Shown: positions 15,573 to 40,514, counted from the first letter of the stretch. The stretch: DNA of 56,930 nucleotides from a virus (IMGVR_UViG_3300025267_002563:1-56930); one strand, 5' to 3'. Made by a program: numbers and translations. The notes: generated by a model not told the origin, from the sequence alone.

Positions 15573-16370
15573 TTACTCCTCAATAAAGGTGTCTGAATTT
15601 AACATTGGCTGATCGACAGTGCCGTCTTCATATTCGTGATACTGAGCAAGCTTATCCATTGCCTTTTCAGCCGCTACCCGATGAACTTCCATATCAAATC
15701 CTTCTTGCTGTCTAAATTCCTTACTGTCTAACTGACGCAACCACGAAGTAAAATTCGTCTTCGCATCATCGGCATTTCTTTTCCTCTGTTCCCTTGTACC
15801 TTTAAGATCTTTCAAAAGCCGCTCTTTTTTTGTTAACAACTTTTCGTGCTCATTAATGTACGCGGACTTAGATGATATAGCCGCGCCTAGTTGAGTTTGG
15901 AATGAAGCTAGCGCTTGCGTGTCGCGCGTTGCTGGCGGTTTATCCATTTCGTCTTCAATAAGTTTATTTAATCTAGCGATGTTTCTTAAAACTTCTTGGC
16001 GGTCTTCCATGCCTCTATTGATAAGCACCTCTGTTCTAATAACCTCTAGTATTTCCATTTCCTCTGTATGAGTAACGTCCTCAGAGAATTGTTTAAAGTA
16101 GTCAATCCACTGGTGTTCGAAAAAAATTAATTCGGGATCTCCGAACTGTTTTTTAAGTTCCTTATAATAATAGCGGTCTCTTAGCCCTACAAGAAGATGT
16201 TCATCGTCACTCATATTGCGCATTTTGAGATTTTCTTTGTCGATAAACTTTTGTACCGGCGTTTTAGTCCTATTTAAAGTTTCAGCAATTTCTTCTATGG
16301 AAATATTGAAACAATTTTGCCGAATAAAGTTCATTTCGTCAATCGACAGTTTTCCACGCTTCTTCGTCAA
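15573..16370 (-). CDS. Hypothetical protein with N-terminal HTH-like segment and coiled coil (possible small terminase)
   Basis: SIEEIAETLNRT helix; probable TTG start at 16370 after AAGGAGA. Confidence 0.45.
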   Translation of the reverse strand: MTKKRGKLSIDEMNFIRQNCFNISIEEIAETLNRTKTPVQKFIDKENLKMRNMSDDEHLLVGLRDRYYYKELKKQFGDPELIFFEHQWIDYFKQFSEDVTHTEEMEILEVIRTEVLINRGMEDRQEVLRNIARLNKLIEDEMDKPPATRDTQALASFQTQLGAAISSKSAYINEHEKLLTKKERLLKDLKGTREQRKRNADDAKTNFTSWLRQLDSKEFRQQEGFDMEVHRVAAEKAMDKLAQYHEYEDGTVDQPMLNSDTFIEE

Positions 16371-16962
16371 TGTTATTCTCCTTGAATATTTGTATGATAA
16401 CTTCAATAAGTATATCGCGTTTAACCTTTGCTAATTTGAGATTATTTACCAGCCTAATCCAATCTTCTCTATATTGTACTGGAATAGATTTATCAACTAG
16501 GTTAAAAATTTGTTTTTTATCTATCATATCCTCTATAGCATCGGACTGTTTGATATCTAGGTCTAGTTGTGCAGTGTTCATGATATTGCGTTTTGCAGTG
16601 TTTCTTTTTAACCATCCCATATACAAATCACATTCTTCATGATTATCATATGCCCTACATCCATATCCTTTATCGTTTTCAAAAGCTATATCGAAATATG
16701 GACAGGAATCGCAAGGCTTATCCGGCCTTCCAAAGTTATTTCTCTTAAAGTTATAAAGACGGTTTCTAACATGTGTCCAAAGAAAGTTTTCTAGAGGTCT
16801 GATGCCATCGTAATTTTCAATACCTTCCCAAGCAAATAAGCGTGCCTGTTGTTTCATATCTTCTAATGCATGATAACCAAACTTAAATTTATTTGCTAAT
16901 CGATTCGCTATGTTGTTTATTATCTGGATCACCTGTTCTTCCGTCATACCCTGCGGAATCAC
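16339..16962 (-). CDS. Sigma-factor-like protein (region 2) with Cys-rich insert
   Basis: EDMKQQARLFAWE...FLWTHVRNRLYNFKR; CDSC...C...C. Confidence 0.65.
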   Translation of the reverse strand: MIPQGMTEEQVIQIINNIANRLANKFKFGYHALEDMKQQARLFAWEGIENYDGIRPLENFLWTHVRNRLYNFKRNNFGRPDKPCDSCPYFDIAFENDKGYGCRAYDNHEECDLYMGWLKRNTAKRNIMNTAQLDLDIKQSDAIEDMIDKKQIFNLVDKSIPVQYREDWIRLVNNLKLAKVKRDILIEVIIQIFKENNIDEEAWKTVD

Positions 16963-17353: not shown

Positions 17354-17551
17354 ATGAATAATAAATGGACTACTGAAGATAAGCGATTTATTAGGGAAAA
17401 TGCTCATCATATTAAAGATAAAGATTTAGCTAAAGAATTAAGCTTGCGTAATCAACGCACTATTTCATTAGATGCTGTACGTAAGCTTAGACAACGTCTT
17501 GGTATTGTTAAAAAAAGCGGACGAGGCAGATGCGAACTGGAGGAAAAATGA
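17354..17551 (+). CDS. Small HTH/Myb-like DNA-binding protein
   Basis: KWTTEDKRFIREN...DLAKEL...AVRKLRQRLG. Confidence 0.6.
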   Translation: MNNKWTTEDKRFIRENAHHIKDKDLAKELSLRNQRTISLDAVRKLRQRLGIVKKSGRGRCELEEK

Positions 17552-17844
17552 GCTGGTGTGAGTTCAAAGATAGTGAGGTACATGGAAAGGGTATCTTTGC
17601 GACGGAAATTATACCCGAAAACAAAGTTCTTTTCGAGACCCATAAAAAGACAAGCGGCGCTTTTGAGTGGCTTAATCTAGTGCCGAACTGTTCTTATAAC
17701 CATTCGGGCAAACCCAACTGTCGATCTCTTACTCTGGGAAATTTTAAATATTTAGTGACTCTTAGGGAAATTGAAGAGGGGGAAGAATTGGTCGTGGACT
17801 ATAGAAAAGATAGGGACTTAGAGCAACCGAAGAAGGGGTGGTGA
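17548..17844 (+). CDS. SET-domain protein
   Basis: SEVHGKGIFA, YNHSGKPNC, IEEGEELVVDY. Confidence 0.9.
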   Translation: MSWCEFKDSEVHGKGIFATEIIPENKVLFETHKKTSGAFEWLNLVPNCSYNHSGKPNCRSLTLGNFKYLVTLREIEEGEELVVDYRKDRDLEQPKKGW

Positions 17845-18047: not shown

Positions 18048-18127
18048 CTAAGCTATACCCACCAAAGGACTTAGGGCGACCGAGCCCCGGCCCCGGCGAC
18101 GTAACTCCTTACAGTGTATAGAGTTAT
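18048..18127. repeat. 80-bp bipartite element, copy 1
   Basis: Two 27-bp imperfect palindromes (about GTAAnYCCTT-N7-AACGACTTAC) joined by a 26-bp GC-rich linker. Confidence 0.85.
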
Positions 18128-18234
18128 GGCTATTCTGTTATTCTTTCAGAATTATTTCATACTGCTATTGCAATGAGACGATAATAGTATATAATGAGAG
18201 CATGACAAACAACAATCACACAAAAGGAGTTGCC

Positions 18235-18348
18235 ATGATTAATCTTAGCAGAGTTTTGTACGGCGTATATCTTCTGGTTTCAATCTTCATTCCCGCAAGC
18301 ATTGTACTGATTGCTTCCGCAGTTCTCACTAGCCTTATCACCCAGTAA
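18235..18348 (+). CDS. 37-aa hydrophobic peptide (not in track)
   Basis: AAAGGAG RBS; MINLSRVLYGVYLLVSIFIPASIVLIASAVLTSLITQ. Confidence 0.55.
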   Translation: MINLSRVLYGVYLLVSIFIPASIVLIASAVLTSLITQ

Positions 18349-18359
18349 AGGAAACTACA

Positions 18360-18611
18360 ATGGACTTTAATTTTGATGCAAAGAAAAGAGTACACCCTAA
18401 TACAATCAAGTGGGCACAAGCCCATGATATTGAGATTGAGGTAGGCAATAGGATTGTTGAGGTATGGCATAGGTGTGATAGTGTGAATGATGGGCTATCT
18501 GTCATATGTCACAATGAGAACGAACTAGATGAAGCTCTCGATAGATTACATGATGAGTTTACAAAAGACATGATTCTATCCGTACACGACGATCCACACT
18601 GGAGAAATTAA
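18360..18611 (+). CDS. Hypothetical early protein
   Basis: ORF with AAAGGA RBS. Confidence 0.65.
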   Translation: MDFNFDAKKRVHPNTIKWAQAHDIEIEVGNRIVEVWHRCDSVNDGLSVICHNENELDEALDRLHDEFTKDMILSVHDDPHWRN

Positions 18612-18612
18612 A

Positions 18613-19074
18613 ATGTACTCAGCAAAAGACCTACAAGACTTTGTCAACTTAAAGAATGCTCAACAACAATTAAACAATCAAGCAAAAGTAATACAGCAAG
18701 AAATAGTTAAGCTACACAATAATGCCAACGCTATTAACAATAGGCTTAAAGAAAATCAAATTAAGCTAGAACAATATAAAGAATTAGAAAACGTTAAAGA
18801 AATGTTTAACCTTATAGAACCCGAAGAACGTATAGATAATATTCGACCAAATTATGTAACAGAAGAACAAAAAAAGACTTTACTTCTTAAACTGTTCTCA
18901 GAGTATAGAGCATTAAACCCGCGATCAACCCGAGTTCCATTCGCTTGGTTGAAAAAAACTTTAGATAATCAATATAATATAAAAACAAGAAGTGTAAGTA
19001 ATTTCTTTACCAAGCTTCTTCCTCAATATAAAAAAACAGGGGGAAAAAGAAACCGATGTGTGGTTGTGCCATAA
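18613..19074 (+). CDS. Hypothetical coiled-coil protein; stop codon lies inside element copy 2
   Basis: ORF track; GGAGA RBS. Confidence 0.7.
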   Translation: MYSAKDLQDFVNLKNAQQQLNNQAKVIQQEIVKLHNNANAINNRLKENQIKLEQYKELENVKEMFNLIEPEERIDNIRPNYVTEEQKKTLLLKLFSEYRALNPRSTRVPFAWLKKTLDNQYNIKTRSVSNFFTKLLPQYKKTGGKRNRCVVVP

Positions 19075-19150
19075 ACCCTTACTATCAAACGACTTACGAC
19101 GAGCGCGGCCCGGCCCCGGCGACGTAACTCCTTATACAGTAACGACTTAC
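19071..19150. repeat. 80-bp bipartite element, copy 2
   Basis: ATAAACCCTTACTATCAAACGACTTAC-linker-GTAACTCCTTATACAGTAACGACTTAC. Confidence 0.9.
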
Positions 19151-19200
19151 AACTACTTTGGAAATCTTTGGGAATCTCTGGGAATTAGTGGCCATAGCTA

Positions 19201-19229
19201 TTGACAAATGACGATATATAGTATATACT
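19201..19229 (+). promoter_or_regulatory. Sigma70-type promoter
   Basis: TTGACA-17 bp-TATACT. Confidence 0.8.
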
Positions 19230-19271
19230 AAGAGCATGATAAGAAACAATGATAACACGAAAGGAAATGAG

Positions 19272-19469
19272 ATGACTAAAATCACATTCAACAATGGCGG
19301 AAACGTATTTGGTATCGAAGTAGTAAAGGTACACTTTCGGCACTTTGTTGCAAAGTTTGATGGTAAGGTTATTGAAGGTACTCGCTGGCATAATGACGGC
19401 GGTTGCGAATCGAAAGCTCAAGAGATTATGAAAAAAAGAGCTATTGACAACCAATCGCAATTTTGCTAA
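19272..19469 (+). CDS. Hypothetical early protein (MTKITF...)
   Basis: ACACGAAAGGA leader/RBS. Confidence 0.6.
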   Translation: MTKITFNNGGNVFGIEVVKVHFRHFVAKFDGKVIEGTRWHNDGGCESKAQEIMKKRAIDNQSQFC

Positions 19470-19786
19470 AATAAGAGAATGACAAACAACACTAACACTC
19501 GTAGAGAATGGAGGTTGATATGGATTATCACGAAGCATGTGAAGCGATTGTATCACGACAGGAAGCACGACTTGAACTAGAGGCACACGATGCCCCCTTC
19601 TATGAGTTCACGCAAGAGCGTGGCGATAGGGAGGAGTACTATGGTTATGAGATACTTAACTTCTTAGGATATTAAAATTAAAATGGATTGGAACTTTATT
19701 TCCTTTATGGTTGTGTGGGTAGTGCTTGTGGTTATGGTATGGCGCGGCATATGGAAGGCAACACGGGAAGACAGAGACATCTGGTC

Positions 19787-19866
19787 ATAACCCTATACTA
19801 CCAAAGGACTTAGGGCGACGGCGCCCCGGCCCCGGCGACGTAACTCCTTACACAGCAACGACTTAT
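19787..19866. repeat. 80-bp bipartite element, copy 3
   Basis: Same 27+26+27 layout. Confidence 0.9.
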
Positions 19867-19906
19867 AACTATCTCGGTAATCTTTAATAATAAGTGGCCT
19901 ACCCTA

Positions 19907-19935
19907 TTGACAAACGCCGATAACTAGTATATACT
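19907..19935 (+). promoter_or_regulatory. Sigma70-type promoter
   Basis: TTGACA-17 bp-TATACT. Confidence 0.8.
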
Positions 19936-19959
19936 AAGGGCATAACAAGGAAAGAAACA

Positions 19960-20064
19960 ATGACACTCGCACAAGTTAAACTCTACATCAAGTACAGTAC
20001 AGTTCGTCCGACTCACATCAGTGTTGCACGTTGGAGTGCAATGGTTCGTCAAGCAAAGGGATAA
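19960..20064 (+). CDS. 34-aa basic peptide, paralog A1
   Basis: MTLAQVKLYIKYSTVRPTHISVARWSAMVRQAKG; paralog at 22165. Confidence 0.75.
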   Translation: MTLAQVKLYIKYSTVRPTHISVARWSAMVRQAKG

Positions 20065-20068
20065 GACA

Positions 20069-20179
20069 ATGCGTAACGTTATCTGGATCATCAAAGAAGT
20101 AGCTATCATGTTTGTCTGGACCAGTATGATACTGATCACATCTGCCATAGGGGCACTGGTACTACTAAACAACATGTAA
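20069..20179 (+). CDS. 36-aa membrane peptide, paralog B1
   Basis: MRNVIWIIKEVAIMFVWTSMILITSAIGALVLLNNM; paralog at 21328. Confidence 0.7.
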   Translation: MRNVIWIIKEVAIMFVWTSMILITSAIGALVLLNNM

Positions 20180-20291
20180 GATACGCTCAACTGGAGCCGT
20201 AAGGCTAGGGCTAATCGCCACTGAATGAGAGTCTTACCCATGGTAGACTTCTGCGAGATACGGTAGGTGCTCAGGGCACGCGAGTTATTTT

Positions 20292-20371
20292 ATAAGTGCT
20301 GATGTGGTAACGACTTAGGGCGATGGAGCCCCGCCCCGCTCGCCGTAACTCCTTTGATACTAACGACTTAC
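20292..20371. repeat. 80-bp bipartite element, copy 4 (solo 27-bp sites follow at 20471-20497 and 20594-20620)
   Basis: Same 27+26+27 layout. Confidence 0.9.
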
Positions 20372-20759
20372 GACGATTCCGCAGAGCAACTCATGTGCCA
20401 AACACAATCTAATCTCATAATGAGAATCCTTCCCTGCCACTTTGACAGGAGAAAAGCCGACTAATTTCTCCTAAGTATATGATATCAAACGACTTAAATG
20501 CGGTTTGCCATTTTGGCATAGGGGTGCTAAAATCTGCCATTATGACGTTAAGGTAATTTAATGAAACGTTACTAAAAAACTATTTTCAAGATTTTAACTC
20601 GATGGTACGAAACGACTTACGACAACACAAAAATCATTTATTCTGAATGGCACGAATAGTGCACTATATACTATTATGAAAAGCGTTAACACAAGTTCGA
20701 CTGGAATCGCAAGATTAGGTTTAAGAGACACTGAACGAACTACAACCACAGGAGAGAAA

Positions 20760-21065
20760 ATGGACCATTTTGACACGGAAATTACTTGCGAAGAATTCTA
20801 CTGTGACGAGGACCGACTCGCATGGGAAGAAAGAACACTATTTTTTGAAGAAAAGGAAAAGAAAATGAATCTAGAAAAAAGAAGTCAAAAAACAAAAGAA
20901 GATTGGATTAAGATTTTAAATCACCTTAAAGCTAAGGGTTTTCGCGGAGTAAGAGCAGAAAAAGAAGCTGCTAGATGTCTAAAGGAAATTGAAAAAAATG
21001 AGCTAAAAAAAGCTCATAAAGAATACACTGAAAATTTGGATAAACTAAAAAATCTTTGGAGTTAA
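20760..21065 (+). CDS. Hypothetical protein with acidic N-terminus (DHFDTEITCEEFYCD), paralog C1
   Basis: CAGGAGAG RBS before ATG 20760; N-terminus shared with the 24133 ORF. Confidence 0.65.
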   Translation: MDHFDTEITCEEFYCDEDRLAWEERTLFFEEKEKKMNLEKRSQKTKEDWIKILNHLKAKGFRGVRAEKEAARCLKEIEKNELKKAHKEYTENLDKLKNLWS

Positions 21066-21070
21066 TTAAA

Positions 21071-21301
21071 ATGTCAAATAAAGTTGAATTAAACAGAATG
21101 TACAATGTTCGGATAGTAAGCCCAAAAGGTCGGGTTGAGAATCACCAGCAAGTGTCTGGAGAGAGACTCGCAAACGATCTGAAATGTGGAGGTTTTCACT
21201 ATAATAGATTTAATCCGTTTTGTGAGATTTTAAGTTGGGAAGCGGTTCCCGAGATCACAGCGGAAATGGTAACAGGTCATGGCCGTTGGGGTTGTGAATG
21301 A
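21071..21301 (+). CDS. Hypothetical protein
   Basis: GGAG RBS; ORF track. Confidence 0.6.
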   Translation: MSNKVELNRMYNVRIVSPKGRVENHQQVSGERLANDLKCGGFHYNRFNPFCEILSWEAVPEITAEMVTGHGRWGCE

Positions 21302-21327
21302 CAATTAACTTTTTTAAGGAAAATAAA

Positions 21328-21438
21328 ATGAGAACTCTATTTTATTGGATCAAGGAAATTGTAATAATGTTTGTTTTTACAAGTATGATCTTGATTGCTT
21401 CCGCCGTGGGAGCTTTGGTACTTGTATCTAATATGTAA
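21328..21438 (+). CDS. 36-aa membrane peptide, paralog B2
   Basis: MRTLFYWIKEIVIMFVFTSMILIASAVGALVLVSNM; TAAGGA RBS. Confidence 0.7.
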   Translation: MRTLFYWIKEIVIMFVFTSMILIASAVGALVLVSNM

Positions 21439-21585
21439 AAAAATGATCTGGGGGGTTGACTTTCACAATTACTATGGTAAAATAAAAGCACAGAACCAAG
21501 ACCTAACTGGACCCTACGGGGTAGAGCTTAAAAGCTACTGAATAGGTTTTACTTTTACTTTCTTTACTTTTTAGGAGATGCAAAG

Positions 21586-21771
21586 ATGTCAATTCAAGTT
21601 ACTAAGAATGACGAAACAAACACAATGACCATCGTGCTGCCCTTGTCGGCCAAGGGAACGCTATCGGCTAGCGGCAAGAATGAAATTCTAGCTACCACGC
21701 GCGGCAATCAGCAGATTGCGTTGAATGGGCGAGTTGTGTCGGTTGGAGTAAACGTATATACTAAATCATAA
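21586..21771 (+). CDS. Small hypothetical protein (SASGKNEILATTRGN motif)
   Basis: AGGAGA RBS; own promoter near 21457-21483; terminator hairpin near 21849-21877. Confidence 0.75.
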   Translation: MSIQVTKNDETNTMTIVLPLSAKGTLSASGKNEILATTRGNQQIALNGRVVSVGVNVYTKS

Positions 21772-21992
21772 ATAAAGGGAAATAGGTGAAGCAGGTGGGA
21801 TGGGATAAAGCTCTGTTGCTCAATGTCCCATCTTACCCAGCCCTACTAAAGCCCCCTATATGGGGGTTTCCCTTTTTAAGGTAGAAAAATGACATTTCAT
21901 TCAAGAATAACTAGACTACAGAGATGGCTGATCGTACTGGCATTGTGGATTATGTTAGGATCTTATATTTTTGAGCTATACATGAGATACTC

Positions 21993-22072
21993 CTAAACCC
22001 TTACGTAGTAACGACTTACGACGACGGGGGCGGGCCACGCTCGCCGTAACTCCTTTCATACCAACGACTTAC
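21993..22072. repeat. 80-bp bipartite element, copy 5
   Basis: Same 27+26+27 layout. Confidence 0.9.
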
Positions 22073-22112
22073 AGCTATCTCGGAAACTTTTCAGAATTGT
22101 TGATTGTAGGTA

Positions 22113-22140
22113 TTGACTTTTGTCGATAAGTAGTTATAAT
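22113..22140 (+). promoter_or_regulatory. Sigma70-type promoter
   Basis: TTGACT-16 bp-TATAAT. Confidence 0.8.
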
Positions 22141-22164
22141 AAGAGCATCACAAGGAAATAAACA

Positions 22165-22269
22165 ATGACACTCGCACAAGTTCAACTCCGAATTCGCTTC
22201 ACTCAGGTTCGCCCGGCTCACATCAGCGTAGCTCGTTGGGCTGCAATGGTTCGCCAAGCAAAAGGATAA
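22165..22269 (+). CDS. 34-aa basic peptide, paralog A2
   Basis: MTLAQVQLRIRFTQVRPAHISVARWAAMVRQAKG. Confidence 0.75.
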   Translation: MTLAQVQLRIRFTQVRPAHISVARWAAMVRQAKG

Positions 22270-22278
22270 GGGTCCAAA

Positions 22279-22533
22279 ATGTTAGATTTAATGGCAGAAA
22301 TTACTTGTATGCCAAACGCAAGTAAACGTACTAAGGATAGAATTAGGGAACACGGTCCCGTGTTTAAATTGGAAGCGTTTGACAATCCAGCTTGCATGGA
22401 TGGCGTTCCTAGTGTATTCTTAAGATCTGAAGACGGATGGTTTGGATGGTTGATCAGCGACGAGATTTTTTGCCGTAATGCTCCCTCACCCTCAGACAAT
22501 ATGATTGAATGTAACAACCTGTTGAGAAAGTAA
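22279..22533 (+). CDS. Hypothetical protein
   Basis: ORF track; TAAGGG RBS. Confidence 0.65.
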   Translation: MLDLMAEITCMPNASKRTKDRIREHGPVFKLEAFDNPACMDGVPSVFLRSEDGWFGWLISDEIFCRNAPSPSDNMIECNNLLRK

Positions 22534-22609
22534 AATTATCTGCTACAGGGGTTGACAAGTAGGAATTTTGTGGTATAATAAAGAGACACTTAACACGAAG
22601 GAAAAAATT

Positions 22610-22954
22610 ATGACTTACGAACTGACCGAACTTGAAGCGACTATTTCCGAATGCTTTGAATACAATGGTAAGAGCTTGGCGGAATGGGATGAAGAGAACA
22701 AAAAAATCCAAAAGGAACTTGAAGAAAAATATATGCGTGAACAATTCGCCAAAGATTATGAGCAAGAACGGCAAGAAAATATCAAGTTATACCGTGAACA
22801 AGCCGATGAACTAAGTAGGTACGATTCGATAGGTCAGTTCGTTGACTTAGCTGGTGAGTTTGATAGGTCAAAGGTTCATGTGGATGAAGACGCTCGGTAT
22901 CGGGCACAATTAAAATTTGCAGCAAGAACCAATTTGGATATGGAAGATGAATAA
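22610..22954 (+). CDS. Acidic hypothetical protein
   Basis: Promoter TTGACA...TATAAT at about 22552-22579; AAGGA RBS. Confidence 0.7.
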   Translation: MTYELTELEATISECFEYNGKSLAEWDEENKKIQKELEEKYMREQFAKDYEQERQENIKLYREQADELSRYDSIGQFVDLAGEFDRSKVHVDEDARYRAQLKFAARTNLDMEDE

Positions 22955-23108
22955 AACTACGGTGAGATATATCGGCGTATTGCTTATTATTTGGGGGTTG
23001 ATTTTCCTGAACGGTTGTGTTACAACTACAAAGGTTGTGGTACGACACGCATTCCCAGACGATCACATTAACTACGAAATTTCACAGGAAGTATCACGAG
23101 CATATTGA
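22947..23108 (+). CDS. Small putative lipoprotein
   Basis: Hydrophobic stretch followed by lipobox-like FLNGC. Confidence 0.55.
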   Translation: MNKTTVRYIGVLLIIWGLIFLNGCVTTTKVVVRHAFPDDHINYEISQEVSRAY

Positions 23109-23241
23109 GCCCCGGTCAAAGAGACGATGTTTGATAGGTTAGTGGATATGGTGCGGTAACCTAGCCACAAGTAGCCACTGCAAACATTCTCGGTGCAAGT
23201 CCGATGTGGGGCATCCTACACTTTATTTTTTGGAGAAAACT

Positions 23242-23508
23242 ATGAGCCACGATCCAACCGAAACTATTCGCAGAAGCGAAGTCACTAGAATCAACACGGA
23301 GGTAGAGAGTTCAGACGAGGATGCGGAACGAGTACGGCTGGAAGCGGAGTATGGACAAGTGTGGAATACACAACAACTTCAAAAAGATTTTGTAGCGAAG
23401 AGTTTTGCGGCCCCATATATTATTGTGGAACGTAAAGCTGATAATGTTGCCGGTACGCTAGAATTTCAACACGGTCCACGTTATTATTTTAACTTCAAGG
23501 AAAACTAA
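23242..23508 (+). CDS. Hypothetical phage protein (GTLEFQHGPRYYF)
   Basis: GGAGA RBS; ORF track. Confidence 0.7.
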   Translation: MSHDPTETIRRSEVTRINTEVESSDEDAERVRLEAEYGQVWNTQQLQKDFVAKSFAAPYIIVERKADNVAGTLEFQHGPRYYFNFKEN

Positions 23509-23944
23509 AAATGAATTTCCCTTATGGTAGCAAGATTGAGTTTGATGGTACGGAATTGACTTTTACAAAAATTGAAAACACCAAGAGCGGTGGTGTGGTT
23601 TGTATTTTCTCTGATAAAAATGGGAAAATAACTAAGCTCACACAAAAACAAGTAGAGGAGATTTTATGCCCTTAGTTTGGACTATTTTATGGTTGGGTGC
23701 TGTGATTGGAGTATGGACTACGATTATATACGTTAGCTATAACGATAAGGATTTTTAGTGATAACTTGTAAAGCTATGCGACCAAGTACCGGAAGCGTTA
23801 TTAATGTGGAAATTCCAACAGAAATTGGAAATGATCCCTTTGCAATTGCACAGTGGATAGGTGAAAAGTTTAATTGGCAATTTATTCCACTTGGAAAATA
23901 CCACATCAAATTTCTTAACCTTAGAGATGAATTGTAAACTTGAC

Positions 23945-24024
23945 GTAAACCCTTACGCTGTAACGACTTACGGCGATGGGGGCGGGCCGCGCTCGACGTA
24001 ACTCCTTATGTAGTAACGACTTAT
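23945..24024. repeat. 80-bp bipartite element, copy 6
   Basis: GTAAACCCTTACGCTGTAACGACTTAC-26 bp-GTAACTCCTTATGTAGTAACGACTTAT. Confidence 0.9.
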
Positions 24025-24064
24025 GACAATGTGGGAAATCTTTCAGAATTATTGATGGTGGGGG

Positions 24065-24092
24065 TTGACTTTGGTCGATATATAGTTATAAT
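24065..24092 (+). promoter_or_regulatory. Sigma70-type promoter
   Basis: GGGG-TTGACT-16 bp-TATAAT. Confidence 0.8.
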
Positions 24093-24132
24093 GGGGGAGT
24101 AAGAAGAAACAACCCACGACCAAGGAGCAATC

Positions 24133-24303
24133 ATGTTTGATCACTTTGATTCGGAAGTTAGCTGCGAGGAATACTACTGCGACGATTTCGACACATGGGC
24201 AAATGAAGTCGATGAGATTCCCGATGAGGAACTCGAATGTGTTGCGGACTTTTTGGATAATTATCCATTGCAGCACTTGACAGACCCAGAATCTGTGGTA
24301 TAA
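24133..24303 (+). CDS. 56-aa highly acidic protein, paralog C2
   Basis: AAGGAG RBS; MFDHFDSEVSCEEYYCDDFDTWANEVDEIPDEELE. Confidence 0.7.
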   Translation: MFDHFDSEVSCEEYYCDDFDTWANEVDEIPDEELECVADFLDNYPLQHLTDPESVV

Positions 24304-24322
24304 TAAAGTACAAGGAGAAACC

Positions 24323-24586
24323 ATGTTTGATTACAAAGACCACAAGTGCCGCATAGAGTATGATCGGGAAGAGGACAATATCAAGGCATGGCATATAGTC
24401 AAGAAGCCCAACGGGCAGGAGGTGTACGCTGACATAAGCCCTTACAATGATGATGAAGAACTGATGAAAATGTGGATTGATGCGGGCTATCCACAACGAA
24501 TAGGAAGAGCCCCGCTTGATAGGAATGAGTTGTTATGTTTAATGGAAAACCGAACCATCTACCAGAGGGAAAAATGTCAAAGCTAA
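24323..24586 (+). CDS. Hypothetical protein
   Basis: AAGGAGA RBS; promoter at about 24277-24304. Confidence 0.7.
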   Translation: MFDYKDHKCRIEYDREEDNIKAWHIVKKPNGQEVYADISPYNDDEELMKMWIDAGYPQRIGRAPLDRNELLCLMENRTIYQREKCQS

Positions 24587-24744
24587 AAGTAGGACAAGAA
24601 GTAAAATTTGTGTATCATAATAAAGTAAGGCAAGGTAAAGTTGAACGATTGTTCAATAACACACCCTACCCTGCTTTTTGTGTGGACCATGGCGACCACT
24701 ACAAATCGTACCGACGCAGTAAAGCTAAGTTTCTGGCCAAGTAA
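24574..24744 (+). CDS. Small SH3/KOW-like basic protein
   Basis: LKVGQEVKFVY...GKVERL; terminator hairpin at 24783-24815. Confidence 0.55.
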   Translation: MSKLKVGQEVKFVYHNKVRQGKVERLFNNTPYPAFCVDHGDHYKSYRRSKAKFLAK

Positions 24745-25039
24745 CTACTACTATACATTTTCGTCAGAGCTTAGATCATAAAGCGCAGCCTCTTATTCAA
24801 GGGGTTGCGTTTTTTCCAACACGAAAGGTCAAAACTATGAACGATTATTCTGATGACTTAAGTAATTATCAAGGAAAAGGTTGGCCGATTGAAGAGGAAG
24901 TTTTTTACGGGAATTTAGAAAATTTACAGGAAAAGGTAGAATTTAAAGATGCTCAAGAGGATAATGCCGATACTTGAATTTTTGGCTATTGTGGTATGGG
25001 GTGTGCTAGCGATAATGGCGATGATACATTATCCTTGAC

Positions 25040-25119
25040 GTAAACCCTTATGGCATAAGGACTTAGGACGACGGCGCCCCGCCCCGCTCGTCGTAACCTC
25101 TTACTGTGTAACGACTTAC
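25040..25119. repeat. 80-bp bipartite element, copy 7 (solo site at about 25322-25348)
   Basis: Same 27+26+27 layout. Confidence 0.9.
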
Positions 25120-25149
25120 AGCGATTCTATTTTATTGTAAAGTTTGGGG

Positions 25150-25177
25150 TTGACTTTAGCCGATGATATAGTATAAT
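25150..25177 (+). promoter_or_regulatory. Sigma70-type promoter for tRNA-Asp
   Basis: TTGACT-16 bp-TATAAT. Confidence 0.8.
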
Positions 25178-25185
25178 GACTACAT

Positions 25186-25259
25186 GGGGTTGTAGCTCAA
25201 TTGGTTAGAGTACTGGACTGTCGATCCAGCGGTTACGGGTTCGATTCCCGTCAGCCCCG
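25186..25259 (+). tRNA. tRNA-Asp(GUC); CCA not encoded
   Basis: Acceptor GGGGTTG/CAGCCCC, anticodon arm CTGGA-CTGTCGA-TCCAG, T arm ACGGG-TTCGATT-CCCGT. Confidence 0.9.
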
Positions 25260-25447
25260 CTATTGTCTTGCCCGAGCTAGGCCCGTTAGGTTGTAAATAG
25301 GTTATAGCACGCGAGTTTTGCGTAAAGTGTTAACACGGCATGACTTACGACAAATGAAATTGCTCTAAGTTTTTTCTCAAGTTGGGGGTTGACTTTGGAC
25401 GATAATAGGTTATAATGAGAGAAACACAACACACGAAAGGACACAAC

Positions 25448-26224
25448 ATGGTCAAGTTCTCAAAAGCTAATGCAAAAATTGAAGCGTTAAAAGAGGTTCC
25501 TTCTTTACAAAAATATCTCAAGGGAAAAAAGGTTTATTCGTTTGATCTTTTGTCGGGTTATTCGTGTCCATTTGCAAAGCAGTGTCTGAGCAAGGCAACG
25601 GTCAATGACGAAGGTAAGCGGAAAATCAAAGATGGTCCCGATACTGAATTCCGGTGCTTTTCAGCAAGTCAGGAAGTACAGTATACCAATGTTTACAATT
25701 TACGCAAAAATAATTATGATGCGTTGCGTGGGTTGGACGTAAAAGAAATGGTCAAGGAAATTCTATCAGCTATGCCGAAAGATATGGGTGTCTGTAGAAT
25801 TCATGTGGCAGGCGATTTTTTCAACGAAGATTACTTTTATGCTTGGTTGGTAGTTGCTAACTTAAATCCACATATTCTATTTTACGCCTATACAAAATCC
25901 TTGAGGTACTGGATAGCTAATATGGATTTTGTCAACGAACGGCCTAATTTTGTCTTGACCGCAAGTTATGGTGGCAGAGAAGATGGGTTGATCGGTAGTC
26001 ACAACCTCAGATCGGCCAAGGTGGTATTTTCAGAGCAAGAAGCGTATAGCCAGAATCTGGAAATTGACCACGACGATAGTCATGCCGCAGATCCGGCTAA
26101 AAAGAATGATGATTTTGCTTTACTGATTCACGGCACACAGCCCAAAGGTAGTGAAGCAGCGGTGGCTCTAAAAGAGCTAAAGGGAAAAGGGTCATATAGT
26201 CGAAAGAAAAAGGTGGCTGCATGA
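25448..26224 (+). CDS. Gp88-like phage protein (Cys-rich, radical-SAM-like)
   Basis: SCPFAKQC...CFSAS...RIHVAGDFF...YAYTK; promoter at 25389-25416. Confidence 0.7.
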   Translation: MVKFSKANAKIEALKEVPSLQKYLKGKKVYSFDLLSGYSCPFAKQCLSKATVNDEGKRKIKDGPDTEFRCFSASQEVQYTNVYNLRKNNYDALRGLDVKEMVKEILSAMPKDMGVCRIHVAGDFFNEDYFYAWLVVANLNPHILFYAYTKSLRYWIANMDFVNERPNFVLTASYGGREDGLIGSHNLRSAKVVFSEQEAYSQNLEIDHDDSHAADPAKKNDDFALLIHGTQPKGSEAAVALKELKGKGSYSRKKKVAA

Positions 26225-26415
26225 CATGGGGTGAACTGTTAAAGTACATGAAAGAGAAAAACATGGAAGACTCGGATTTTTTACGAGAGACTGTCTATGT
26301 TTGGAATGTGGAAAGGGGAGAGTTTTTACCGGCTGACCTACTTGAAACTGGAAAAGATGACGATATCATTGGAGGAAACCGGCTTTTTATCTCAATTAAG
26401 GAGGAACAGTCTTGA
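26221..26415 (+). CDS. Hypothetical protein
   Basis: ATGA overlap with the upstream gene. Confidence 0.6.
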   Translation: MTWGELLKYMKEKNMEDSDFLRETVYVWNVERGEFLPADLLETGKDDDIIGGNRLFISIKEEQS

Positions 26416-26486
26416 TAGGGTATGTGCTGTTAATAGTGATAGGAATTTTTGTTACAATCATGTGGATTAACGACACGGAATAAATA

Positions 26487-26678
26487 ATGTTAAAGTTAAG
26501 AAATAAAGAATATAAAATAAAATATAAACATGAGGATGCCGGATTTGATTTTGGGGTTTACATCACCTATATCGATGGTGAATATGAAAAAATGGTATAC
26601 TTTACAAAACTTGAACACCAAATTAAATTTACGGACCTTTTAAAAGAAGCAGGCTATACATATGTGGAATCGACGTAA
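26487..26678 (+). CDS. Hypothetical protein; stop codon inside element copy 8
   Basis: ORF track. Confidence 0.55.
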   Translation: MLKLRNKEYKIKYKHEDAGFDFGVYITYIDGEYEKMVYFTKLEHQIKFTDLLKEAGYTYVEST

Positions 26679-26754
26679 ACCCTTACTGCCAAAGGACTTA
26701 GGGCGACGGCGCCCCGCCCCGCTCGCCGTAAACCCTTACCACATAACGACTTAC
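26675..26754. repeat. 80-bp bipartite element, copy 8
   Basis: Same 27+26+27 layout. Confidence 0.9.
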
Positions 26755-26878
26755 GGCAATCTTATTTATTTCTAAAGTTAGGGATTGACTTTGCCGATAA
26801 GTATAGTATAATGAAAGCATCAAAGGAAACACCGATTAGTAAAGTTTCCAGTTTTTCACTTTTTTAAGGAGAGTTGTT

Positions 26879-27055
26879 ATGAAGGCTATCAAAGGAAACC
26901 TGCGTTTCATTCCCCGTGCTATTATTAACACGGAGCGCACCGACCGCCCACAGTGGGCAAAGATTGTAATCGATGGAAAGGTGGTACACACCGGACAACT
27001 TCGGTATATCAAGAGAATCGCCAAGGCCAAGTATAATTTGGATCTGGATATTTAA
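26879..27055 (+). CDS. 58-aa basic protein (not in track)
   Basis: TAAGGAGAG RBS; promoter at 26785-26812; MKAIKGNLRFIPRAIINTERTDRPQWAKIVIDGKVVHTGQ. Confidence 0.7.
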   Translation: MKAIKGNLRFIPRAIINTERTDRPQWAKIVIDGKVVHTGQLRYIKRIAKAKYNLDLDI

Positions 27056-27077
27056 GCGGGTCTCTCCTTTCGTGTGG

Positions 27078-27133
27078 TCCTCTGCGAGCGTTTTAGTCTG
27101 ATCAAAGCTAACGGCGCTCGCAGGGGATTTTTT
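27078..27133 (+). terminator. Long GC-rich hairpin plus T tract
   Basis: TCCTCTGCGAGCG...CGCTCGCAGGGGA then TTTTTTT. Confidence 0.75.
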
Positions 27134-27225
27134 ATCTGGAAAAATTAATGCTGGAGGGGTTGACTTTCCGATAATAAGTAGTATAATGAAAGCATAACAA
27201 GTTCACTTTTTTGAAAGGAAGAAAA

Positions 27226-28170
27226 ATGTCTCACGAAGTTGAAAGAATGGTTTTTGCCGGTGCAACCCCTTGGCATGGTTTGGGAACCGAAATTGACAGC
27301 GCAACCAATTTCTGGGATGCGTTCCGATTGGCCGGTTTGGATTGGGAAGTTGCGACCGAACCCGTTTTCCGCAAGGATGGTCAAGAGGTCAAAGCTCAAG
27401 CTGCGGTGCGAACCTCAGACAATCGGGTTTTGGGCGTTGTAGGTCCACGTTGGACCCCCTTACAAAATAAGGATGCGTTCAAGGTGTTTGAACCGCTCGT
27501 AGATTCCGGTGATTTGATTTTGCATACTGCCGGATCTTTGCGAAATGGCGAACGTATTTGGGTTCTGTGCCAGTTGGGTGCGGAAAATAGCGAAATCGTA
27601 AAAGATGATGAAATCGCAAAATTTGTCTTGCTCAGCAATGGGCATGATGGCAAGCTGGCGGTTCATCTAGGATTTACGCCGATTCGCGTGGTTTGCGCCA
27701 ATACTGAAGCAATGGCACGAGGTTCTAAAGCCTCTAAATTGATTCGGGTGAGGCATCACAGATTTGTCAAGAATAACGTGGAAAAACTCCGCGATATTAT
27801 GAATCTGGCAAACCAAGAGTTTGAGACGACTGCCGAAAATTATCGATTCTTGGCATCGCGTCAAATTAACTCGAAAGATTTGCGTAAGTATGTTAAAATC
27901 GTTTTCAATGTCCAAGAGCAGGAAGACAAGGATATTTCAACGCGAACTGAAAATATTATCCAGAGCGTTGAAAATTTGTTCTTGACTGGTAAGGGCAACG
28001 ATTTGCCGGGCGTCCAAGGTACTTACTGGGCAGCATATAATGCCATGAGTGAGCATCTTAATTATAATAAAGGGAGAAGCAACGAAAATCGAATGGATTC
28101 TCTCTGGTTCGGACAAAATGGAAATTTGAACCAGAAAGCCCTTGACACTGCGTTGGCTCTCGCAACCTGA
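27226..28170 (+). CDS. DUF932-family phage/plasmid protein
   Basis: PWHGLG...AGLDWEV...PLQN..AF...TAGSL..G...LLSNGHDG...TPIRVVCANT; promoter at 27160-27187. Confidence 0.85.
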   Translation: MSHEVERMVFAGATPWHGLGTEIDSATNFWDAFRLAGLDWEVATEPVFRKDGQEVKAQAAVRTSDNRVLGVVGPRWTPLQNKDAFKVFEPLVDSGDLILHTAGSLRNGERIWVLCQLGAENSEIVKDDEIAKFVLLSNGHDGKLAVHLGFTPIRVVCANTEAMARGSKASKLIRVRHHRFVKNNVEKLRDIMNLANQEFETTAENYRFLASRQINSKDLRKYVKIVFNVQEQEDKDISTRTENIIQSVENLFLTGKGNDLPGVQGTYWAAYNAMSEHLNYNKGRSNENRMDSLWFGQNGNLNQKALDTALALAT

Positions 28171-28231
28171 TAGGAATCTGTTTAATCGACACGTCAGTCA
28201 GGCTAGCTAAGTGCTGACCTCTGTTCGAACT

Positions 28232-28265
28232 GCCCCGTTCCCAAATCTGGGAGCGGGGTTTTTTT
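28232..28265 (+). terminator. Intrinsic terminator
   Basis: GCCCCGTTCCCA-AATC-TGGGAGCGGGGT followed by a T run. Confidence 0.85.
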
Positions 28266-28272
28266 AATTGAC

Positions 28273-28352
28273 CTAACCCCTTACTATCAAAAGACTTAGG
28301 GCGACGGCGCCCCACCCCGCTCGACGTAAGTTGTTACTATATATAGACTTAC
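28273..28352. repeat. 80-bp bipartite element, copy 9 (solo sites at 28386-28412 and 28468-28494)
   Basis: Same 27+26+27 layout. Confidence 0.9.
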
Positions 28353-28762
28353 GGCAATCCCCCAGTGCAAATATCATGCCGAACTGTAAGTTGTTGATAT
28401 GTATAGACTTATGAAGATTTTCTCAAGTTTAGGGGTTGATTTTGACGATGTGTATTGTATAATAGACGTAAGTACTTATGCTGTAAGGACTTATGAAAAA
28501 AAGTAGAGAAAACAAACCGATTCCAACATTCCTTTGAAATTTATCGATCTTTTGAAAAAAATAAAGTTTTTCTTGCCGGGCTGTGAGATGTCTCAGCTAT
28601 ACTAGGCCCTTGCAGTCTGTGATAGTCTATAGCACGCGAGTTTTTCCTACAAGTTTAAACTGTCAAATATTTTTACAAAATAATGAGATTGTATTTTCTG
28701 AACTAGACCTTTGAGTCCACGATAGTCCATAGCACGCGAGTTTTCCCAAATAGAGGTATTCA

Positions 28763-29340: not shown

Positions 29341-29532
29341 ATAAAACTTTTCTTCGCATCCTTCCTTAGATCAGCGGGAAAAAGTTTCAGAGAAATTAAC
29401 AAGAATAAACTTGCAAACAAATAAAACGTAGTACCAAGGAAAATCCTAAAGTATCTGAGCATGTATTTTCCTTTCTAGCCTAATGAGTCTGAGATAGTCT
29501 ATAGCACGCGAGTTTTTATAATTTTATTAATA

Positions 29533-34390: not shown

Positions 34391-34656
34391 TGAGGTTAAA
34401 AATGTTACATATACCTACGGTCTCTTTGGAAGTATCGCAGGCTATTATCGCATCCATGGAGCATGATCCAGACTATTTTCATACTTTCTCCGATAAATTA
34501 CACAATAATAATCCGTTATTTTATTATATGATCGCAGCAGCAAAGGAAGCTAAATCAGAACAGTTTTCAACAGGATATGTTAAAGGAGTGTGTACATCAT
34601 ACGTACTCATTGAGGCTCAAATGGAAGCTGATGCGATGAATGCTCAATGGGGGTGA
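34390..34656 (+). CDS. Hypothetical protein; stop overlaps the tmRNA 5' end
   Basis: ORF track. Confidence 0.55.
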   Translation: MRLKMLHIPTVSLEVSQAIIASMEHDPDYFHTFSDKLHNNNPLFYYMIAAAKEAKSEQFSTGYVKGVCTSYVLIEAQMEADAMNAQWG

Positions 34657-34989
34657 CATTGGATTCGATTACTAGTGAAAATATTAACTGCATTGACTGG
34701 TTAATCGGTTGGCCAGTATAAAAGCCGATTAAACATTTTTAAGTGCCGAAACCAGTTTCGCGCTTGCTGCTTAGGTGGCTGGGGTTGTGTAAACCTTATT
34801 ACCCAATTGCACTGATTCAGGTAATTCTGATAGGGACGATAAACCCGAATTAATATATTCTGATAGCACTAATGTACTTGACTCAGATAATTCTGATAGT
34901 TTTGTTTGTTGTACAAATACAATAAACTAACAATGTAGATGTTATTATGGAAACTAAGTAAGACCGGGGTTCGATTCCCCGCACCTCCA
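34649..34989 (+). ncRNA. ssrA: tmRNA; tag reading frame AETSFALAA-stop at 34745-34774
   Basis: 5' GGGGGTGACATTGGATTCGA; 3' GACCGGGGTTCGATTCCCCGCACCTCCA; acceptor stem with G3-U wobble (Ala identity); tag ends in ALAA. Confidence 0.93.
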
Positions 34990-35092
34990 CTGAAATTTGG
35001 GGTATAATAAGATAGTGCGCCTGTGCAGGGCACTCTTCAGTTACGCCTATGTAGGGTAACGTTTATTTTCTTGCTTTTTTAAGGAGAATACT

Positions 35093-39252: not shown

Positions 39253-39253
39253 A

Positions 39254-40513: not shown

Positions 40514-40514
40514 A

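Follow-up and report, generated by a model that had tools for sequence, protein, structure and literature searches.

Phased double-palindrome elements as putative operators and unit boundaries in the early region of a marine phage family

Promoter-early stem-loop (PeSL) cassettes have been described in T4-type phages (Arbiol et al., 2010; PMC2839356). PeSLs combine a stop codon with a polyG/polyC stem-loop and a sigma70-like promoter, and one such stem-loop lowered reporter expression like a strong terminator (PMC2839356). The element analyzed here resembles them in having many copies among small ORFan early genes that form a hyperplastic block, in its module order (upstream stop codon, G/C-rich dyad, A/T-rich stretch, strong sigma70-like promoter), and in that related genomes gain, lose and replace cassettes beside the modules (PMC2839356). 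It differs in that its G/C part is enclosed by two strongly conserved 27-bp pseudo-palindromes with a fixed spacing of 52/53 bp, a feature not described for PeSLs, and in its distance of 30-60 bp, in whole helical turns, to the -35 box downstream; the stem-loops of PeSLs are found at five different positions in or around the promoter (PMC2839356). Furthermore, the hairpin stability of the phage element is weak, and the phage family that carries it is unrelated to T4.

Phase-dependent upstream sites include the NtrC-type paired dyads at sigma54 promoters, CRP class I sites, Fis at rrnB P1 and phi29 p4. The element is similar to such activator sites with respect to its paired dyad-symmetric sites a whole number of turns apart, its site centres at about -79/-132 relative to the start site (plus 10 or 20 bp), and the bent A/T-tract DNA between sites and promoter. 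However, unlike at NtrC-type sites, the promoters after the element are mostly sigma70-type and the phages encode no enhancer-binding protein (no bEBP gene, PF00158, in five relatives), and in contrast to activator sites the element also closes the upstream unit. To our knowledge, no described consensus matches a 27-bp site with four conserved patches. The host-takeover module of the Bacillus phage SPO1 is comparable in being a compact array of small early genes whose units each have a very strong promoter of host type and a strong Shine-Dalgarno sequence, but SPO1 has no sequence relation to the element-bearing phages, and we know of no conserved double-palindrome element in its module.

The window, i.e., the whole stretch of 56,930 nt of virus DNA that was analyzed (IMGVR_UViG_3300025267_002563:1-56930), is a piece of about 57 kb from a marine phage with a CheckV completeness of 37%. 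The nine 80-bp copies of the original observation were found again, in register, each built from two 27-bp sites around a 26-bp linker, with a site spacing of 53 bp in 9/9 copies. The linker is composed almost wholly of G+C. All nine elements are co-oriented, restricted to 18.0-28.5 kb and mutually 62-83% alike. The overlap with upstream stop codons noted originally was also found, the TAA being positions 2-4 of the first site for the ORFs ending at 19074, 19790, 21996 and 26678. The elements and solo sites are as follows:

18048..18127, + strand: double-site element 1, first site degenerate
19071..19150, + strand: double-site element 2, site 1 contains the TAA of ORF 18613-19074
19787..19866, + strand: double-site element 3, site 1 contains the TAA of ORF 19683-19790
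20292..20371, + strand: double-site element 4, a reverse sigma54-like motif comes next and a sigma70-like promoter is missing at the usual distance
20594..20620, + strand: solo 27-bp site, matrix score 16.9
21993..22072, + strand: double-site element 5, site 1 contains the TAA of ORF 21889-21996
23945..24024, + strand: double-site element 6
25040..25119, + strand: double-site element 7, a promoter and then tRNA-Asp (25186-25260) lie after it
26675..26754, + strand: double-site element 8, site 1 contains the TAA of ORF 26487-26678
28273..28352, + strand: double-site element 9, canonical terminator 28232-28259 just before
28386..28412, + strand: solo 27-bp site, matrix score 12.6, between element 9 and its promoter
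28468..28494, + strand: solo site, near-perfect palindrome, begins 4 nt past the -10 box of promoter 28436-28463

The 18 paired sites of the window were used to build a weight matrix (threshold score 12), which scored above 12 at 21 places, namely the paired sites and the solo sites at 20594, 28386 and 28468. All of these fall within 18048-28494, and the + orientation scored higher at each except the near-symmetric solo sites 20594 and 28386. Shuffled windows (n=20) gave 0 or 1 match each, a control that is partly circular because the matrix derives from the window's own sites. Independently of the matrix, the half-site AASGACTTA occurs 20 times in the window against 1.42 expected, a number reached in 0/100 shuffles, and 18/20 of these copies are on the + strand at 18065-28493. 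Where at least five solo sites had been proposed, we found the three above threshold and one weaker half-site at 20488-20496.

The relatives of the window are phages of 150-223 kb with terminases 47-58% identical, and those carrying the element appear to be a family of large, uncultured marine phages with 8 to 10 or more copies each. At least one double element was present in 45/94 IMG/VR stretches (145 elements in total) and at least three in 25/94. In five related records of 149-223 kb, a relaxed site pattern gave 15-38 matches per record compared with 0-1 for the reversed pattern, and the matches were confined to a single 10-20 kb block per record, with one outlier near 91.1 kb in G003. The block lies at most about 10 kb from the terminase in G001, G003, G004 and G005; the terminase was not found in G002. 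Beyond the relatives, the closest terminase match is to Bacillus siphoviruses at 24% identity. The length of exactly 80 bp holds for all nine window copies but not family-wide, as the spacing among 192 raw pairs in relatives is 53 bp (138 pairs), 52 bp (48), 49 bp (4) or 55 bp (2).

REP, BIME and REPIN sequences are extragenic imperfect palindromes, occurring as doublets at the 3' ends of genes in bacterial chromosomes. A selfish palindromic repeat of REP/REPIN or MITE-like type that has colonised the intergenic parts of the early block would fit a multicopy, extragenic, imperfect palindromic doublet of about 80 bp, and a TnpB-like gene is present in the window at 46342-47598. Nevertheless, this origin is highly improbable: the copies lie in one block, in a single orientation and in fixed phase to promoters, no RAYT gene or hairpin covariation accompanies them (Y1_Tnp, PF01797, 0/5 records, i.e., the window and four 98-100% complete relatives), and true double elements occur in only 3/38 bacterial-genome stretches, all three short MAG contigs. 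Moreover, the sequence divergence between copies in the window is set against arm positions that stay the same in phages with a terminase identity of about 50%.

The 27-bp site has an invariant core, TAA..CTT-N7-AAG..TTA, flanked by GnC. Among 129-130 unique sites, positions 2-4, 9-10, 18-19 and 24-26 are constant at 94-100%, and the mismatched arm positions 5/23, 6/22 and 8/20 are conserved too. The 7-bp centres vary across the window's 18 sites and show no consensus in 135 elements, so that dyad-symmetric conserved contacts enclose a variable centre. At every variable arm pair the Watson-Crick fraction was equal to or below the shuffled value (z -2.3 to +1.0). None of the top 30 mutual-information column pairs joins a site arm to its complementary arm, and the non-adjacent pairs among these 30 lie only within the linker (34/45, 34/46, 35/47) or the variable centre of site 2. 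RNA fold z-scores for elements 1-9 were -1.96, -0.06, +0.15, -0.53, -2.40, -1.83, -1.46, -1.07 and -0.98. With arm conservation that involves no compensatory changes, and with RNA folds that are not unusually stable, the pattern points to a protein site on double-stranded DNA rather than a hairpin. A REP/REPIN-type hairpin kept by compensatory changes was rejected, as no site pair exceeded the shuffled expectation. An RNase III processing site as in a T7-type early region, where a conserved, stable hairpin with an internal loop lies in a polycistronic early RNA, was likewise discarded: there was no unusual fold stability, covariation or Rfam match for the element, and each unit has its own promoter.

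A PeSL-like terminator-promoter cassette is a possible alternative. Here the GC linker and complementary inner arms would fold in the upstream transcript and attenuate read-through, the conserved arms would be only part of the hairpin, and the main evolutionary effect would be homologous cassette shuffling. The location of the element, which follows one unit's stop codon and precedes the next unit's promoter, agrees with this, as do a perfect GC palindrome in the linker of many relatives (e.g., GCGGGGC-N-GCCCCGC), modest covariation of the linker dyad (z up to 4.6), and linker folding slightly better than that of shuffles (-10.1 vs -8.6 kcal/mol), so that the linker may act as a hairpin. Furthermore, the only strong canonical terminator between units of the 10-kb region is the one at 28232-28259, ahead of element 9. 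However, the linkers of the first three window elements are direct, not inverted, repeats (GGCGAC...GGCGAC), and a hairpin followed by a T-run, i.e., a canonical terminator, was found inside 0/133 elements. A separate canonical terminator lies just upstream of 8/133 elements, compared with 9/600 random windows. Since it is the arms, with their conserved mismatches, that are best conserved, and the fold energies of the nine window copies are not unusual, we regard this explanation as rather unlikely.

The sigma70-like promoter noted originally is present 30-83 nt past the element in 8/9 window copies, element 4 being the exception. Each unit of the window has its own consensus promoter. Promoters and sigma54-like motifs following the elements are listed below:

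18168..18195, + strand: sigma70-like promoter, 40 nt past element 1
19201..19229, + strand: sigma70-like promoter, 50 nt past element 2, with three 10-bp GGGAATCTCT-like units in the spacer
19907..19935, + strand: sigma70-like promoter, 40 nt past element 3
20386..20399, - strand: sigma54-like motif GGCAC-N5-TTGC, 14 nt past element 4
22113..22140, + strand: sigma70-like promoter, 40 nt past element 5
24065..24092, + strand: sigma70-like promoter, 40 nt past element 6
25150..25177, + strand: sigma70-like promoter, 30 nt past element 7
26785..26812, + strand: sigma70-like promoter, 30 nt past element 8
28367..28380, - strand: sigma54-like motif GGCAT-N5-TTGC, 14 nt past element 9
28436..28463, + strand: sigma70-like promoter, 83 nt past element 9, one solo site between

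Among unique elements, 75/138 have a sigma70-like promoter within 160 nt and no such promoter was detected within that distance of the other 63. A forward sigma54-like motif occurs 37-38 nt past 4/140 elements, in a few relatives, which is a further resemblance to the phase-dependent activator sites. The gap between element and -35 box is quantised: of the 66 elements with a promoter within 70 nt, 16 have a gap of about 30 nt, 31 of about 40, 15 of about 50 and 4 of about 60. The Rayleigh R at period 10 is 0.86 (n=66), or 0.80 after dropping spacers at least 70% alike (n=42 left), compared with 0.04 for 2000 random anchors, and these statistics, together with those for conservation and covariation, are inflated because the compared elements are related sequences. 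The element thus keeps a face-of-helix relation to the promoter, which would be meaningless for an RNA hairpin. The spacers are diverse in sequence, yet carry phased A/T tracts or 10-bp units, and part of the quantisation could have arisen as 10-bp repeat units were gained and lost, instead of through selection on phase. Seven good promoters of the window's early region lack any element; therefore, the element is not required for having a promoter. The solo site at a promoter start (28468-28494) recurs in the relatives L080 and L051, although this arrangement represents one orthologous place and 3/102 solo sites.

Two genes beside the element block are relevant to what may bind it:

15573..16406, - strand: conserved HTH + coiled-coil protein, 265-277 aa, adjoins the element block in all relatives
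16339..16962, - strand: sigma-like factor gene, flanks the element block in the window, G001, G003 and G004

The HTH + coiled-coil protein is, speculatively, a candidate binder or a small terminase subunit; its fold matches to small terminases (E 0.63 and 0.92) are not significant. No candidate was confirmed in the search for an element-binding protein among the phage genes. HU/IHF genes (PF00216) were not found in the five relatives, and the widespread protein families of the early region look acidic or membrane-anchored, not DNA-binding. The constant proximity of the block to the sigma-like/terminase module, the possible small terminase encoded beside it and the location of elements at the 3' end of units with strong promoters could instead indicate a DNA-level role apart from promoters. 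The elements might then be bound by the small terminase or used in packaging, form topological barriers or gyrase sites where highly transcribed units meet, or mark stages in a stepwise entry of the DNA. Such a role is quite unlikely, as it leaves the phasing to the -35 box unexplained. In addition, eight to ten double elements over 10-20 kb are unlike known pac/cos regions, and no connection with genome ends was seen (the records have the class 'linear', and no end repeats were found).

The elements had also been proposed as an integron-like recombination array. Integron attC sites and tyrosine-recombinase core sites have inverted arms around a short centre, as do the 10-bp arms and 7-bp centre here, and cassette stop codons may lie inside attC. 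Cassette content and order do differ between the window, L083, L080 and L051, with some junctions on element/promoter modules. Of the 12 indel edges relative to L083, 3/12 are within 10 nt of a module edge, and 8/12 coincide with gene boundaries, over 100 nt away from the nearest element. The genes of the early region mostly lack homologues in G001, G003 and G004. Metagenome contigs yield element-to-element joints, including joints that go back, although their sides span only 21-43 nt at 85% likeness, and joints with such short sides often come from repeats or other organisms. A tyrosine or serine recombinase was not matched in the window, in line with the original statement on recombinases, nor was a Y1 transposase, and the four 98-100% complete relatives did not supply any of these either (Phage_integrase, PF00589, and Resolvase, PF00239: 0/5 records, with control genomes matched). 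Tyrosine recombinases require matching crossover regions, so exchange between copies would be blocked by their differing 7-bp centres. Direct repeats 53 bp apart also make no sense as recombination partners, and promoterless attC cassettes under a common promoter are ruled out by the promoter in each unit. Because recombinases are absent from four complete relatives and the centres vary, the integron-like reading is rejected, and site-specific exchange or excision of cassettes at the 27-bp sites, whether integron or lox/dif-like, is hardly tenable. Homologous exchange between the repeated modules of about 160 bp would explain the cassette differences and the reshaping of the hyperplastic ORFan region, as demonstrated for the PeSLs of T4-type phages (PMC2839356).

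Phased operators for a dimeric protein, the other proposal made originally, agree with the conserved arms without covariation, the whole-turn promoter distance and the solo site on a transcription start. We give a probability of roughly one half to the element being a putative phased double operator or upstream element that also serves as unit boundary for early genes. Judged from these sequence patterns, it would be a platform on double-stranded DNA for docking of a sequence-specific protein, with two pseudo-dyad 27-bp sites on the same helix face, five turns apart. An A/T-tract spacer of three, four or five helical turns would join this platform to a strong sigma70-type early promoter, so that the bound protein would always meet RNA polymerase from the same side. 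A single protein, either phage-made, brought in together with the DNA or provided by the host, may occupy all nine or more platforms. As one solo site lies over a transcription start, shut-off is more likely than the alternative, activation. Collectively, the platform protein would switch the early transcription units together, and a bound GC-rich platform at the 3' end of a unit would form a boundary against upstream read-through, while the repeated element-plus-promoter modules supply homology for cassette exchange as a by-product.

The 80-bp element is a real, strongly non-random, family-wide regulatory DNA element. We give about even odds (roughly 50%) to the reading that it serves as a phased double operator or upstream element, which would also bound the early transcription units. 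A repeat finder aligned nine copies of about 100 nt in register between 18047 and 28371, and each, when cut at the predicted coordinates, consists of a 27-bp site, a 26-bp linker of nearly pure G+C and a second 27-bp site. This bears out the nine double-site elements of the original prediction, here numbered 1 to 9 from left to right. Each site comprises two inverted 12-mers of the form GTAAnnnnTTAC, 15 bp apart, and its outer four bases are likewise palindromic. Across all 56,930 bases, a weight matrix built from the window's own 18 paired sites scored above its threshold of 12 only at these 18 and at solo sites at 20594, 28386 and 28468. All matches are confined to 18048-28494 (the element block), and the + orientation scores higher at every one save two near-symmetric solo sites. 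Solo sites do exist, although the predicted number of at least five was too high, as three to four were found. The half-site AASGACTTA occurs 20 times compared to 1.42 expected, a count reached in none of 100 shuffles, and 18 of the 20 lie on the + strand within the block. All four overlaps that had been named between an upstream stop codon and the first site are correct, and a sigma70-like promoter, expected after most copies, is present downstream of eight of the nine elements.

An exact-match search of IMG/VR with one site variant gave 94 stretches, with at least one double element in 45 and at least three in 25 (145 elements in total). The two sites are spaced by 53 bp in 138 of 192 raw pairs, by 52 in 48, by 49 in 4 and by 55 in 2. 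The 135 unique elements give the consensus G.C gTAAacCCTTac...gtAAgGACTTAg GgCga..ggGgCcgGcCccg.tcG.C GTAActCCTTa......AAcGACTTAc g.CaAtt. Five related contigs (virus records G001 to G005) span 149-223 kb, four of which are 98-100% complete, and in four of the five the terminase is 47-58% identical to that of the window. A relaxed site pattern occurs 15-38 times per record in these relatives and 0-1 times for the reversed control. The matches fall in one 10-20 kb block per record, with one outlier (G003, near 91.1 kb), and the block lies no more than about 10 kb from the terminase in all four records with a detected terminase. As in the window, a sigma-like gene and a conserved 265-277-aa gene border the block in G001, G003 and G004. 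G003 carries eight double elements, seven of them co-oriented with a promoter 40-50 nt downstream, and G001 carries eight on a single strand.

Among bacterial genomes the exact site was found in 38 stretches, with double elements only in three short MAG contigs (L132, L133 and L144). The other matches are single sites in unrelated contexts and thus give no clue to the host. Loci with the 27-mer in Treponema MAGs (L129, L131, L135, L142, L143, L149, L152, L153, L156, L158, L159, and further L161, L162 and L164-L166) have it in the opposite-strand reading, recurring on many contigs of two MAGs as a leader with the Shine-Dalgarno sequence AAGGAG, four bases, ATG (GTG in two, TTG in one) and a long poly-G run. 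These contigs look like a phase-variable multigene family, and the recurrence is probably a chance match multiplied by the repeat family.

The record is a single contig of 56,930 bases with a CheckV completeness of 37%. Window DNA, whole or in part, occurs in at least 16 marine metagenome runs (20 of 24 among the runs listed, all of them marine DNA runs stored as contigs), and the listed runs that contain it include no RNA run. No near-identical match to the region was found among 50,697 phage records. The window encodes a large terminase (24% identical to Bacillus siphovirus terminases, with no isolate phage close), a capsid-like protein and rIIA, as well as two sigma-like proteins, a TnpB-like protein and a RuvB-like ATPase. 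The sigma-like genes lie at 16339-16962 (-) and 40437-41243 (+), and the first is kept in G001, G003 and G004, each time at the edge of the element block. The gene of a small SET-domain protein (17530-17844, +) stands at the start of the rightward early arm. The TnpB-like protein (46342-47598, +) has a Cas12f1-like TNB domain and a 44% identical copy in G003, and its gene has no adjoining Y1 transposase. Auxiliary metabolic genes at 35573-36976 (+) and 38833-39733 (+) encode SufB, which is 64% identical to Staphylococcus and Listeria proteins from phage records, the glycine-cleavage H protein GcvH and a thioredoxin-like protein. The many auxiliary genes also include those for Hsp20, DHFR and sugar enzymes, and a sulfotransferase, glycosyltransferases and a GDP-mannose dehydratase are encoded elsewhere in the window. 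Rfam detected only a tmRNA and three tRNAs in the window, with no match at the elements. The tmRNA gene (34649-34992, +, 97.7 bits) has the tag peptide AETSFALAA, and tRNA-Asp, tRNA-Leu and tRNA-Arg sit elsewhere.

The palindromes could in principle be a double-stranded DNA site or a hairpin of RNA or DNA. Site positions 2-4, 9-10, 18-19 and 24-26 are 94-100% constant, and conservation within sites is just as high at 5/23, 6/22 and 8/20, where a hairpin would contain mismatches. At the variable site positions the Watson-Crick share never exceeds the shuffled expectation (z -2.3 to +1.0). None of the top 30 mutual-information pairs connects an arm of a site with its complementary arm, and the few non-adjacent pairs are located within the linker or within site 2 at its variable centre. 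The RNA folds of the nine copies are not unusually stable either (z -2.40 to +0.15). Based on this conservation, the lack of covariation and the ordinary fold stability, we conclude that a protein of two-fold symmetry likely recognises the 27-bp sites in double-stranded DNA. The linker is always G+C-rich and frequently a perfect palindrome in relatives, with modest dyad covariation (z up to 4.6) and folding slightly better than shuffles; three linkers of the window are direct repeats, not inverted ones. It may add a hairpin or a stiff G+C spacer.

The main rival is that the element is an attenuator like the promoter-early stem-loop (PeSL) cassette of T4-type phages. Among the papers searched for the motif and similar elements, the PeSL paper was the sole relative found, and terminator and promoter activity as well as shuffling were shown for that cassette (PMC2839356). 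The PeSL cassette is the nearest described counterpart, with the same genomic setting and the same layout of stop codon, G/C dyad and promoter (PMC2839356). The element departs from PeSL in four respects: its double palindrome is conserved, it keeps to a fixed upstream position counted in whole turns, its hairpins are weak, and its phage lineage is unrelated to the T4 type. A hairpin followed by a T-run was found inside none of 133 elements, and a terminator lies just upstream of 8 of 133 (likewise of element 9 in the window), compared to 9 of 600 random windows. We consider the attenuator unlikely. Readings as an integron attC, a REP/REPIN or an RNase III site each failed a defining feature that was tested.

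The preferred reading as a phased operator or upstream element draws on the position of the promoters. The distance from the element to the -35 box of the next sigma70-like promoter falls in the narrow classes 29-31, 38-43, 49-52 and 60-64 nt. Computed for a 10-bp period, the Rayleigh statistic reaches 0.86 among the 66 elements with a promoter within 70 nt, 0.80 for the 42 that remain after dropping spacers at least 70% alike, and 0.04 for a control of 2000 random anchors. The spacers vary in sequence yet hold phased A/T tracts. Since the two sites are 53 bp apart, their centres lie near -79 and -132 from the start site, or one or two turns farther. Phase-dependent upstream activator sites include NtrC-type enhancers and those of CRP class I, Fis and phi29 p4. 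The geometry of the element resembles such sites. The strongest case for the element acting on DNA together with RNA polymerase comes from the face-of-helix rule in the promoter distances. Gain or loss of 10-bp units could account for part of the phasing. The spacer between element 2 and its promoter (19151-19200, 50-nt class) holds three tandem 10-bp units (CTTTGGAAAT, CTTTGGGAAT and CTCTGGGAAT), and units of this kind make up the difference between the 30-, 40- and 50-nt spacer classes. A solo site lies directly on the start of the block's last promoter, as also in two related loci (L080 and L051), which hints at repression.

Elements 4 and 9 are without the usual promoter. Each is followed by a sigma54-like motif, a good match to the promoter consensus (GGCAY-N5-TTGC), and the positions of these motifs are listed here with those of a second repeat family:

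Sigma54-like motifs and second-family repeats in the window
20386-20399, - strand, sigma54-like motif 14 nt after element 4
28367-28380, - strand, sigma54-like motif 14 nt after element 9
25277-25333, second repeat family copy
28584-28644, second repeat family copy
28684-28744, second repeat family copy
29456-29516, second repeat family copy
20255-20291, second repeat family copy

Related loci totalling 880 kb contain the sigma54-like motif 84 times, compared to 10 times for shuffled sequence, and the motif is not enriched over the whole window (7 matches, 6.3 expected). Among 140 unique elements it lies in reverse orientation at +13/14 of 10 and at +55/56 of 5, and in forward orientation at +37/38 of 4. 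As the matches are often on the opposite strand, the predicted start would be at the edge of the element. Fixed-distance matches were also seen in L004, L015, L022, L025, L055, L071 and L085, and forward and reverse copies face each other in L022, L004 and L085. The second family (repeat families D9, D11 and D17) ends in ATAGCACGCGAGTTTT with CTAGRCC about 30 nt upstream, and its copies precede gene starts and also sit immediately ahead of element 4. The family may represent promoters used by a phage sigma factor, or the end of a small RNA.

Four proteins are the most widespread in the early region: one that is acidic and about 110 aa long (22610-22954), one of the GP88 family, one with DUF932, and a small one that is basic or membrane-associated. 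None of these four has a recognisable DNA-binding fold. Conserved early proteins are also encoded at 25448-26224 and 27226-28170. Pfam detected no classical repressor when about 50 proteins from the window and 10 G003 core proteins were searched, and the five relatives have no genes for an enhancer-binding protein (bEBP) or HU/IHF. The conserved 265-aa protein adjoining the block (15573-16406, -) has an N-terminal helix-turn-helix pattern, long coiled coils and a predicted fold with a mean pLDDT of 82. It has no significant PDB match (best E 0.18; small terminases 0.63 and 0.92) and belongs to no named Atlas cluster. Marine data contain it very frequently, and its 250 relatives are all unnamed. 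We regard it as a candidate for binding the element, and as a candidate only.

The elements had also been proposed as recombination sites of a shuffling cassette array. Four loci (L083, L080, L051 and L069) are 65-90% identical to the window, in patches. Comparison with L083 shows six indel or replacement events with 12 edges, of which three (23942, 26672 and 26820) are no more than 10 nt away from the edge of an element or promoter, one (27126) sits 34 nt ahead of a repeated promoter, and eight coincide with gene boundaries, at distances of 100-700 nt from any element. The order of the window is reversed in L051 for gene 18613-19074, whose homologue there comes after that of 19520-19675. Such indels, replacements and reordering mean that the block is plastic, as the proposal held. 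The role as recombination site did not hold up, given variable centres, edges mostly far from elements, and no recombinase. The 7-bp site centres vary from copy to copy, and the predicted absence of a recombinase from the window was confirmed and extends to the four complete relatives, with no integrase, resolvase or Y1 transposase in either. Metagenome contigs from four runs break at elements and include short-sided element-to-element joints, which are ambiguous as they do not separate circles from repeats or relatives. To judge from the aligned loci, the cassettes vary as expected from homologous exchange, both between repeated modules and at gene ends, rather than from cutting at the sites.

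A further reading, which we hold to be doubtful, is that the elements are nodes of a phage-specific, enhancer- and insulator-like nucleoprotein hub governing the early units via one protein. One putative protein on every double site would gather the early units into one structure, the fixed helical phase would allow control of promoters from several sigma classes (sigma70-type and, in some relatives, also sigma54-like), and each unit would be walled off from its neighbour. If true, such a hub would control early genes globally in a way that is not known from any phage. The lineage itself is abundant in the ocean.

To our knowledge, the early 'host-takeover' genes of large uncultured phages are nearly all of unknown function and timing. 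Here, one conserved 80-bp module marks early transcription units across a family of abundant marine phages. It offers a sequence handle for spotting early genes in metagenomes, a bait with which to catch the regulator, and a ready-made collection of strong and putatively insulated promoter cassettes. Regulatory repeats can also double as cassette-exchange seams outside the T4 group. Should the phasing result from RNA polymerase being contacted about 80-150 bp upstream of sigma70 promoters, this would be an unusual kind of long-range control for bacteria.
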